Virus record (IMG/VR): IMGVR_UViG_2879731240_000008
Length of the DNA: 54,820 nucleotides
Direction: 5' to 3' (one strand)
DNA from: a virus
Lineage: Duplodnaviria; Heunggongvirae; Uroviricota; Caudoviricetes
Position numbers: made by a program. This document shows, piece by piece, positions 12,001 to 15,000 of this stretch. Numbering within the stretch: position 1 is the stretch's first letter; every line of letters begins with the position of its first letter.

Positions 12001-15000
12001 TTCTGGCCATATCTGACAACAGGGAAGAGGTGAAGGATTTAAAATTCAGCTTACCGGTGGTACAGAATGTCGCCAGTGCATTACCGGCACTGCTGAATGC
12101 CACTGTAAACATCTGTTCTGCCGTTCCCGCCGCATTATCCGCATCCGCCGTAAAATTCTGAAACGCCCGCATGGCACCGTTTTTCCAGTCGCCCTGCGCC
12201 ACTTCCAGTTCCTGCCAGTAGCGTTTGTTTTCATTCAGTTGTCGCTTCAGGCTCCCCTTCAGCACCTCCTCAGCCCTCCGGTAGTCCTCCGTCCCGTAAG
12301 TGCCTTTCTGGCGACTGTCATTCTCAAGCTGTTGCAACTGTTGCCGGTATTCCTGCCGGATGCGCAACTGTGCCTGGTAGCGCTGCCGCTGCTTATCCCC
12401 CATACCTGCAGTGGCAATATCCAGATTGTGCTGCTCACGCAGTGCACGTTCTTTGTCTGCCAGCTGGCTGGTCAGCTGAACCGTTTTTTTTCTCAGGTCG
12501 TTAAGCGCTGTCTGTTTCTGCAGCTCCTGCTGTTTCACATCCAGCAGCGTCAGCGCCTGAATCAGCTCATTCTTACGGGCCAGCACACTCTTTTCATCTG
12601 CCGTCAGCTTTTTCCCGTCCAGGTCGCTGATGCGCTGCTGCAGGGCCAGAAGCTGTTTATGCGCTTCAGTCATCCTTTCAGTGGCAATGCCTGCTGACTG
12701 TCTGGCAGCAGCAATCTGCCCTTCCACCTGTGCCTGCTGCTGACTGTACTGCAGCAATAACCGGGTGGCCTCATCATTACGGGTTGCCCGTGTATTTTTC
12801 TTAATGGCTTTTTCGTAACGTTCATTTTCACGCTGTATCGCCGCATCCCTGACAGCCTGGTCGGCGTACTGCATGGCATTAATACGCGCAATTTCCCGCT
12901 GATGTCGTGCAGCTTCCGTTTCATTCATCCGGTTCAGCGCGGCATTTTCAGCATTCCGGCGTTTCTGTTGCTCCTGGTAATTCCGTTCTGCCTGCGCTTT
13001 TGCATCCTGCAAATCCTTCCGGCGTTTTTTCTCCTGAAGATCGTTAAGACGCTGCTGATCGTACTCCACCTGTGTGGAGGCGTTTGTCCACGGATATTTT
13101 TTCGCGCGCTGAATTTTTTCCTGTAACGCATCAATCTGCGCATCCAGCGAGTCTTCACGACCAATATTCATGGCCGCATCCCAGAACTGCTTCCACCAGT
13201 CAGACAAGGTTTGCAGCGTACTACCCAGCGCATTGAGATTATTATCAATATCAGATGTGCGTTTACCGGTTTCCTCTGCCAGCGCAGACATGGCGATCCG
13301 GGCCGCATCACTGGACCGCCCCTGCTCCCCAAGGACGCGTATCTGCTCAAGCTGAGTGGCATTCAAAAAATGCAGCGCATTGTCCAGCGCCTTCGCGGCA
13401 TTTACAGGATCATCCTTCAGCCGCTTAAACTGATTTATGGTATCGCTGACCGACTGGCCAACCGATCGCTCCATCTGTGCGGCAGCTTTCGCCACCATAC
13501 CAATATCGTTTCCATGAAATGCCCCACTGCCCACCACCTGTGCCAGCGCACCGGCTGCCGCATGTTGCGTGATACCATTCCCGGATATGGCCCGGCTGAG
13601 TTTCCACAACTGCCCGACAGTGACACCGGCATAATGTCCCGTCAGCGCCAGCTGACGGTTAAATTTCTCGCCCTCCTTCCGGCCGTCATGCCAGGCTTTA
13701 CCCAGACCCAGGACCGCCGCGACAAGTCCGCCAATAACGCCGCCAGTCATCATGCCTTTCGGCGACATCAGTGCGCCTGTCCATCCGGCACGGTTAGCCA
13801 GCGTTATCCCGGATCCCCTCAGCGCACCAAAATTGCCTCGCGCCATCTGACTGATTAACACCCCCAGCTCCCGCCGGGCTGCCGCACTTTTCAGCCCCAG
13901 CGAATGTGTGGCTTTTCCTGCCCGCTCCATTTTGCGGATATACACTTCTGCAGCACTGCTTACCCCCAGCTGAGCCGCCCTGGCGCGAAGCAACTCAGAA
14001 GACGACAGATTCTGGCGGGTTGCCTGCTCTTTAAGCTGGCGGATAAACGCCGCTTTCTGCCGGGTGGCCTGTTCCTCTGCCTGCGTCAGGGCACGGGTTT
14101 TCGCCGTGATCTCCGAAATCAGCGCCAGATAATCCTGCTGACCAACCCCGCCACTGTTTCTGGCCTGTCGGATCTGCTGCTGAATACGCTGTAATTCCTG
14201 AAGCCCCGCACCGGCCTGTTTCACACTGTCAATCTGGCGATAAAAGGCGGCAGCCGCTTTATCCTGCGCCTCCGCCAGTGCCCTGGCCTGCGCCTGTTCC
14301 TCGCGCATTTTCTGATTCAGGGCATCCACGCGCAGACGGGTTTGTTCCACCTCACGGGCCATGCGTTCATGAGCCCGTGCATTCTTCTCCACCGTCTGCG
14401 CATGGGCTGATGCTGCTGTTGCAGCCGAAGAAGCCGCCTGCATTGTCTGCCGGGCCGCCTGAGTCTGACGCTCCATAAAACGCTGCATACGGGCAGAAGA
14501 CCGTTCTGCATCGCTGGCTGCACCATTCAGAAGGTTTTTGATACGGGGAATTTCATTTTTAAACTCTGCCGCATCAATCCCCAAATCAATGACCAGGTTG
14601 GCTATCTGGTCCATAACGCACACCTCCGGAAATACCTTCCCCAAGATGCATCAGTTCTTCGTCCGTTCGCTCCGGTATCCCGTTCTCTTCCGGTAAAAGG
14701 CTGAAATCAGCCACCGCAGCATCGCTGCTGCCGGACACCATTCTCACGATCAATGCCTTCAGCGAGGCAAACTGCGCATCCATCCACACATCACTGAAGC
14801 TCTGCATCCGGAAATAATCGCCCCACTCACCAAGCTCAGTGGCCGACATATCCGACAGCATCCGCCGCCAGTCTGCCCGCCGGAACTCCCGGGCAAGCCG
14901 CATGACAAACTGCATTTCCCGCGTCAGGACTTTTCCGGCGTCAGCGCCTCATGATCATCATCCCCGGCATTCTCAATGGTCCCCATACCGCTCAGCGACA

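Follow-up and report, generated by a model that had tools for sequence, protein, structure and literature searches.

The junction of the tail assembly chaperone genes G and T in the tailed-phage record IMGVR_UViG_2879731240_000008 probably holds a functional site for programmed -1 ribosomal frameshifting, of the same type as lambda G/G-T, a reading to which we give a probability of about 0.85. The whole 54,820-nucleotide (nt) stretch that was analysed is referred to here as the window. The slip heptamer of the proposed site, G_GAA_AAG, differs from the G_GGA_AAG of lambda and departs from the strict X_XXY_YYZ rule. Judged from the junctions surveyed below, it is nevertheless the usual form in the family, and lambda's canonical heptamer is the minority form within its own family. 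All coordinates are those of the window; the tail genes lie on the minus strand and were read as the reverse complement. The elements at the junction are as follows.

15310..14924, minus strand: gene G, tail assembly chaperone, zero frame, 128 amino acids, MFLKQD...TPEKS (open reading frame list and translation)
14930..14936, minus strand: predicted slip heptamer G_GAA_AAG, P-site codon GAA and A-site codon AAG; the -1 frame reads GGA AAA
14586..14930, minus strand: T segment, -1 frame after the predicted slip, VLTREMQFVMRLAREF..., 114 amino acids plus stop
14949..14951, minus strand: TGA in the -1 frame, closing the T frame upstream (translation; the mEp460 junction is identical in sequence)

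The G product matched the Pfam family Phage_TAC_2 (lambda gpG, PF06894) at 1.4e-39 over residues 2-120 and PHROG 42 at 5e-52. In the fused translation, the T domain matched Pfam Phage_tail_T (PF06223) at 2.1e-14, and PHROG 39 was also matched. The gene order Z-U-V-G-T-H is the same as in lambda, with the G/T pair flanked by the genes for tail tube and tape measure, as is expected of lambda-type chaperones. The PGAP annotation of a 99.9% identical E. coli locus shows the same placement and begins G at the second ATG. By domain content and position, G and T are thus unambiguously assigned as lambda-type tail assembly chaperone genes.

The original prediction, made from the sequence of the window, stated that G ends ACG CCG GAA AAG TCC TGA with T in the -1 frame as in lambda, and both sequence and translation bear this out. 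The codons are ACG at 14941-14939, CCG at 14938-14936, GAA at 14935-14933, AAG at 14932-14930 and TCC at 14929-14927, followed by the stop TGA at 14926-14924. The -1 frame read from 14948 to 14586 gives GADAGKVLTREMQFVMRLAREF..., and the two frames overlap by 22 nt. Because the TGA at 14951-14949 closes the -1 frame, the shift is confined to eight zero-frame codons, GAG GCG CTG ACG CCG GAA AAG TCC. Direct reading of these codons found A_AAG to be the only in-frame Z_ZZN tetramer. A shift at this point would give a G-T fusion of 127 + 114 = 241 amino acids by translation. The span first assigned to the site, 14915-14935, located it correctly, although its upper end misses the first G of the heptamer at 14936; its lower coordinate, 14915, is the ATG used as a stand-alone T start. 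Alternative slip sites in the overlap were considered and rejected, as the -1 frame is closed at 14951-14949 and no second in-frame Z_ZZN tetramer is present; a different upstream heptamer, raised earlier as the possible real slip site, cannot be accommodated in the eight permitted codons.

Aligned with the window, lambda reads GCG GGA AAG, so that the two heptamers differ by one base, as had been noted. The strict X_XXY_YYZ rule is failed at bases 1-3 of the window heptamer, which are G, G and A. The A-site half of the rule is satisfied, with bases 4-6 identical and a base 7 that permits A-site re-pairing, and A_AAG is the most shift-prone tetramer in Escherichia coli (PMC4066793). The bare string GGAAAAG occurs in the window in 10 copies against approximately 8 expected, which is not unusual; the significance of the heptamer therefore lies in its frame, its place in the 22-nt overlap and its conservation, and not in string frequency.

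The 841-bp G/T region has about 96% DNA identity to phages mEp460, cdtI, Tritos and others, and the module was found in 1847 of 5426 complete E. coli genomes, at up to six copies per genome. All 82 of the close relatives first gathered carry GGAAAAG, and a scan for any 7-mer between the conserved flanks returned GGAAAAG in all of the at least 120 matches listed; in all, the heptamer was invariant in more than 200 near-identical prophage copies. In Gifsy-2 (STM1039 / STM1041.1n), where G is 53% identical, the junction CCG GAA AAG TCC TGA is identical to that of the window, and the record already labels T as part of a frameshift hybrid protein. At greater distance, phi80, Flotzy and mEp043, with G about 33% identical, have the junction GCG GAA AAG CCC TTG CCA GCG AGC TGA. 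One Stx2a phage carries lambda's G GGA AAG, and ASU11 carries A AAA AAG.

For the wider family, loci were collected by comparing the Gifsy-2 and phi80 G proteins with viral contigs and by aligning the T domain against bacterial genomes, the latter sampling one genome per bacterial species. The register was constant in every lineage, the site occupying the pair of T-frame codons that precede the Leu of the conserved LAREF motif by 13 and 12 positions. The heptamers found at this register were distributed as follows.

GGAAAAG: 230 of 273 loci
GGGAAAG: 22 of 273 loci
GGCAAAA: 12 of 273 loci
GGTAAAG: 4 of 273 loci
AGAAAAG: 3 of 273 loci
AAAAAAG: 1 of 273 loci
GGGAAAA: 1 of 273 loci

All of the loci without GGAAAAG carry N_NNA_AAR at the same register. 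Clustering of T at 70% identity gave 22 lineages, of which 14 were purely GGAAAAG and 1 was mixed. The lineages came from many genera of Enterobacterales, namely Escherichia, Salmonella, Citrobacter, Kosakonia, Kluyvera, Enterobacter, Klebsiella, Proteus, Providencia, Xenorhabdus, Serratia, Sodalis and others. Compared with the junctions of related prophages, G GAA AAG is therefore the commonest version of the site and no peculiarity of the window copy.

The GGGAAAG loci were mostly identical or near-identical lambda copies in assemblies of unrelated bacteria. Lambda-identical G/T junctions occurred in assemblies under the labels Neobacillus, Oceanobacillus, Kitasatospora, Shewanella, Pseudomonas, Leeuwenhoekiella, Pseudoxanthomonas and others, frequently on contigs that were either tiny or about 48 kb long with low coverage. 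These look like lambda DNA contamination rather than real prophages.

Constraint on the site was assessed with 24 lineage representatives. Base 1 of the heptamer, the last position of the codon that precedes the P-site codon, was G in 22 of 24 lineages, while the amino acid encoded by that codon was P, A, L, S, M or K (and V or T in wider sets). The background of third-position G in these genes is 31%, and the nine preceding codons had G in 1-13 of 24. The slip lysine was AAG in 19/24 lineages, compared with 31% AAG at other lysine codons, and the five AAA cases all had TAG directly after. Position 2 was G in 23/24 and position 3 varied (A, G, C, T), giving a family consensus of G_GNA_AAR. This constraint is informative because synonymous sites should be saturated between proteins that are 35–50% identical. 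The pattern fits that expected if tRNA-Lys slips from AAG to AAA and the P-site tRNA keeps a first-position G:C pair in the -1 frame.

Several variants were observed at the same register. In the AAA-slip lineages (G_GCA_AAA and G_GGA_AAA; L105, L207, L209, L220 and L268), TAG follows directly after the slip codon in all; the L105-type loci have an additional upstream GAG GAA AAG, yet their in-register site is GCA AAA TAG. These AAA-TAG lineages possibly represent a 'shifty stop' version of this system. Morganella (L211-L213) has A_GAA_AAG followed directly by TAA, and Pantoea (L247-L249, L267) has G_GTA_AAG, with poor P-site tRNA re-pairing in both.

The anatomy and conservation described above are observed; the slip itself, its timing and its efficiency are inferred. 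Most ribosomes would read G to its TGA, producing the 128-amino-acid chaperone, and a minority would slip back one base on G_GAA_AAG and go on in the T frame, producing the 241-amino-acid G-T. The slip would take place while GAA occupies the P site and AAG the A site, or in the translocation that follows. The tRNA-Lys would move from AAG to its cognate AAA, and the peptidyl tRNA-Glu (anticodon 3'-CUU*-5') would move from GAA to GGA, with G:C at the first, G.U at the middle and A:U* at the third position. An AAG-to-AAA slip with weaker P-site re-pairing, as proposed in the original prediction, is thus a sound description, since tRNA-Glu on GGA needs the middle G.U pair. The codon after the slip would be GTC, and the product would run ...ALTPEK and then VLTREMQF... 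across the junction. In lambda, where frameshifting runs at roughly 3-4%, G and G-T are made at about 30:1 and both are needed for tail assembly; within the fusion, the G part attaches to the tape measure and the T part brings in the tail tube protein. Among the forms of X_XX, G_GA counts as a known intermediate, and shifting at NNA_AAG hexamers is on record (PMC5009743). The PRFect paper describes a 'twofour' class of motif for phage chaperone genes and points out that, with G:U pairing allowed, tRNA-Glu is able to re-bind GGA (PMC10885494).

Several observations weigh against a functional frameshift site. Literature searches gave no direct evidence of a fusion protein for G_GAA_AAG in any phage; those on the motif in phages returned nothing relevant, in a search that did not include Xu et al. 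2004 (Mol Cell) and Licznar et al. 2003 (EMBO J), which probably treat it. Stimulator-free A_AAG tetramers were near background in a lacZ reporter, at 0.147% vs 0.112% (PMC4066793). The binomial P values for the synonymous constraint are nominal only because the sampled lineages share ancestry. No convincing stimulator was found up- or downstream of the heptamer: the 90 nt that follow it do not form a better fold than shuffled versions do (z = -0.87), and folding of the 24 lineages gave no shared downstream structure at a suitable distance. The only candidate upstream, listed below, is not individually significant, as a window this good is found by chance 12.6% of the time in the gene block.

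14947..14950, minus strand: GAGG, Shine-Dalgarno-like candidate stimulator, 10 nt upstream of the heptamer, equal to the dnaX spacing

The predicted energy of the GAGG:anti-Shine-Dalgarno duplex is -5.6 kcal/mol. Mean anti-Shine-Dalgarno affinity over the 24 lineages is highest where the GAGG lies, and 10-11 of the 24 reach -4 kcal/mol or lower. The peak falls on a conserved Glu codon and is absent from the phi80-type and lambda modules. The upstream GAGG may act as a stimulator, or it may reflect only a constraint at the protein level. The conserved Glu codon, which lies five codons ahead of the P-site codon, is frequently GAG with a G after it, placing GAGG or GGAGG exactly 10 nt upstream. 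GAGG or GGAGG was also observed at the equivalent position in lineages L084, L105, L210, L215, L247 and L250; in Pantoea (L247) the upstream sequence is GGGGAGGA, with -10.9 kcal/mol. Downstream, a GGCGCG/CGCGCC hairpin about 33 nt from the heptamer is confined to lambda- and phi80-type lineages and is not present in the window.

The expected efficiency of the site was considered using published values for E. coli. In the dnaX context, the Tsuchihashi and Brown data given in Supplementary Table 3 of PMC6787027 list 81% frameshifting for A_AAA_AAG, and the same table gives 57% for G_GGA_AAG, 22% for A_ACA_AAG and 20% for A_GAA_AAG. The penalty for A_GAA_AAG, comprising a first-position A.C mismatch and a middle G.U, is 8.5 kJ/mol jointly in the additive model of that paper. 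The first-position mismatch is absent from G_GAA_AAG, in which the base-1 G restores the G:C pair missing in A_GAA_AAG. By extrapolation, frameshifting on G_GAA_AAG in the dnaX context would be 18–86% for a middle G.U cost of 0–8.5 kJ/mol, and at least about 60% if the first-position mismatch costs at least 5 kJ/mol, as other P1 mismatches do. The authors of PMC6787027 caution that first- and second-position changes may be coupled. On this estimate, the G_GAA_AAG site should be usable and would not necessarily be weaker than that of lambda.

A slip of tRNA-Lys alone would give an identical product, and we consider it unlikely, though deserving of weight, that the shift here is of this kind, with A_AAG or GAA_AAG acting as a tetramer or hexamer and the P-site codon and preceding G uninvolved. 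The P-site codon varies across lineages (GAA, GGA, GCA, GTA, AAA) while A_AAR is universal; GCA and GTA re-pair poorly on GGC or GGT, and Morganella uses A_GAA_AAG. Working NNA_AAG hexamers are also known (PMC5009743), and the 22 and 20% values for A_ACA_AAG and A_GAA_AAG in the dnaX context (PMC6787027, Supplementary Table 3) point the same way. However, position 1 of the heptamer is G in 22/24 lineages despite amino-acid changes and position 2 is G in 23/24, which is the pattern expected if first-position G:C re-pairing in the P site matters. In addition, heptamers shift about ten-fold above tetramers in E. coli (PMC4066793).

A separate T protein made without any frameshift, by re-initiation 8 nt past the G stop, is highly improbable. 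It would comprise 109 amino acids from the following start.

14913..14915, minus strand: ATG used by annotators as the stand-alone T start (PGAP annotation; in-register comparison of 24 lineages)

Most phage records and NCBI's PGAP do annotate a separate T coding sequence (14586-14915 in the window; 1986-2315 in locus L279), and the ATG is preceded by GCGGGAA. The ATG is nonetheless unconserved, its place being taken by Leu or Arg in most lineages, lambda, phi80 and Gifsy-2 among them, and the phi80 type has its first ATG about 50 nt beyond the G stop, with conserved T residues ahead of it. Conserved T residues K-V/A-L/F-x-x-E precede any stand-alone start, and the stretch from the slip to the annotated ATG can be aligned with the T of lambda and phi80. 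The heptamer and its register are also kept at synonymous sites, which would be needless for a separate start. Levin and colleagues are said to have found in 1993 that only G and G-T are made in lambda. The real T product is almost certainly the 241-amino-acid G-T fusion.

Loss of useful frameshifting, and with it of the fusion, through a change from G GGA AAG in this prophage lineage is scarcely credible. A degenerate site would be in keeping with a heptamer that is not X_XXY_YYZ and with the weakness of tetramers alone (PMC4066793). The module is, however, carried by about a third of the complete E. coli genomes, no variation was seen among at least 120 copies, and T has kept its open frame intact and conserved. 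Phages mEp460, cdtI, Tritos and phi80, which are inducible or plaque-forming, share the heptamer. The suggestion that the heptamer is an oddity by which the fusion could be lost is not supported, in view of its invariance in close relatives, its majority status across lineages and the synonymous constraint. A frame change made by RNA polymerase slippage was rejected because the A run, although present, is only four residues long, far below the roughly 7–9 that appreciable transcriptional slippage needs, and the selected features (AAG over AAA, position-1 G) are those of codon–anticodon pairing.

Functional frameshifting at the G/T junction can be compared with several characterized systems. 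The -1 frameshift of lambda G/G-T is attributed to Levin, Hendrix and Casjens 1993 and Xu, Hendrix and Duda 2004, 2013 and 2014, as cited in PMC5009743. Lambda and the window share homologous G and T domains, the V-G-T-H order, a -1 overlap with the 3' end of G and a slip that falls in the same codon register, with A-site AAG moving to AAA. They differ in that lambda has GGA (Gly) in the P site and forms three standard pairs in the -1 frame, whereas the window has GAA (Glu) with a central G.U. Furthermore, G ends five codons past the slip in lambda and one codon past it in the window, and identity between the lambda and window proteins is only about 30% for G and 37% for T. The modules of Gifsy-2, phi80 (gp13/gp14), mEp043, mEp460 and cdtI have the same heptamer, G GAA AAG, as the window. 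The phi80 type differs from the window in having five more G-frame codons (AAG CCC TTG CCA GCG AGC TGA) and no upstream GAGG.

Among bacterial sites, the dnaX mutant A_GAA_AAG uses the same tRNA-Glu/tRNA-Lys pair as the window and reached the tabulated 20% in the dnaX context (PMC6787027), but the base before its GAA is A; the window has G, which would restore first-position pairing. The NNA_AAG sites (IS1222 G_CGA_AAG, IS3 C_CAA_AAG and Bacillus subtilis cdd) resemble the window in the AAG-to-AAA movement of tRNA-Lys and in poor P-site re-pairing. The dnaX and NNA_AAG sites rely on strong stimulators, either a Shine-Dalgarno sequence with a hairpin or a pseudoknot, whereas the GAGG is the only candidate in the window. 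The same G_GA P-site, with a GAN-decoding tRNA on GGA, is found in insect-specific flaviviruses, mesoniviruses, some umbraviruses and dianthoviruses (G_GAU_UUY / G_GAN; PMC5009743), although these sites involve eukaryotic ribosomes, U-rich A-site codons and downstream RNA structures.

The feature is thus of a known kind, an ordinary lambda-type G/G-T site that departs only from strict X_XXY_YYZ. The variant is already recognized in principle, through the G_GA intermediates, and is already annotated as a frameshift in Gifsy-2; understanding of how the G/G-T system works is unchanged by these results. It is a tentative suggestion that G_GAA_AAG, or G_GNA_AAR more broadly, represents a distinct, selected class of bacterial -1 site in which the G:C pair and the tolerated G.U of tRNA-Glu set a G:G-T ratio other than that of lambda, with GAGG possibly tuning this ratio in some lineages and lambda being atypical in its own family.

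There are also consequences for annotation and for models of frameshifting. T is annotated as a 109-amino-acid stand-alone protein from an unconserved ATG, without a ribosomal-slippage join, in a module that about one complete E. coli genome in three carries. The slip site that most of this family carries would go undetected by frameshift finders that need X_XXY_YYZ, such as that used to survey enterobacteria in PMC4066793. The family indicates that the P-site half of a bacterial heptamer tolerates G_GN, and could be used for measuring the cost of a middle-position G.U in the thermodynamic frameshifting model, a cost not separately determined according to PMC6787027.

The genes on either side of the G/T pair are the following.

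15369..16109, minus strand: gene V, tail tube protein, directly upstream of G (Pfam Phage_TTP_12, 5.8e-67, plus Big_2; PGAP annotation)
11573..14614, minus strand: gene H, tape measure (Pfam TMP_2, 3.3e-46, and Tape_meas_lam_C, 2.5e-24; PGAP start)

In the mEp460 record, a rho-independent terminator is marked at 994-1011, within the part that encodes T; it is probably a prediction artefact. In the window, the H start (ATG at 14614) overlaps the 3' end of T by 29 nt (14586-14614) and is preceded by GGAGG at 14627-14623. Three reading frames are thus in use inside approximately 350 nt.

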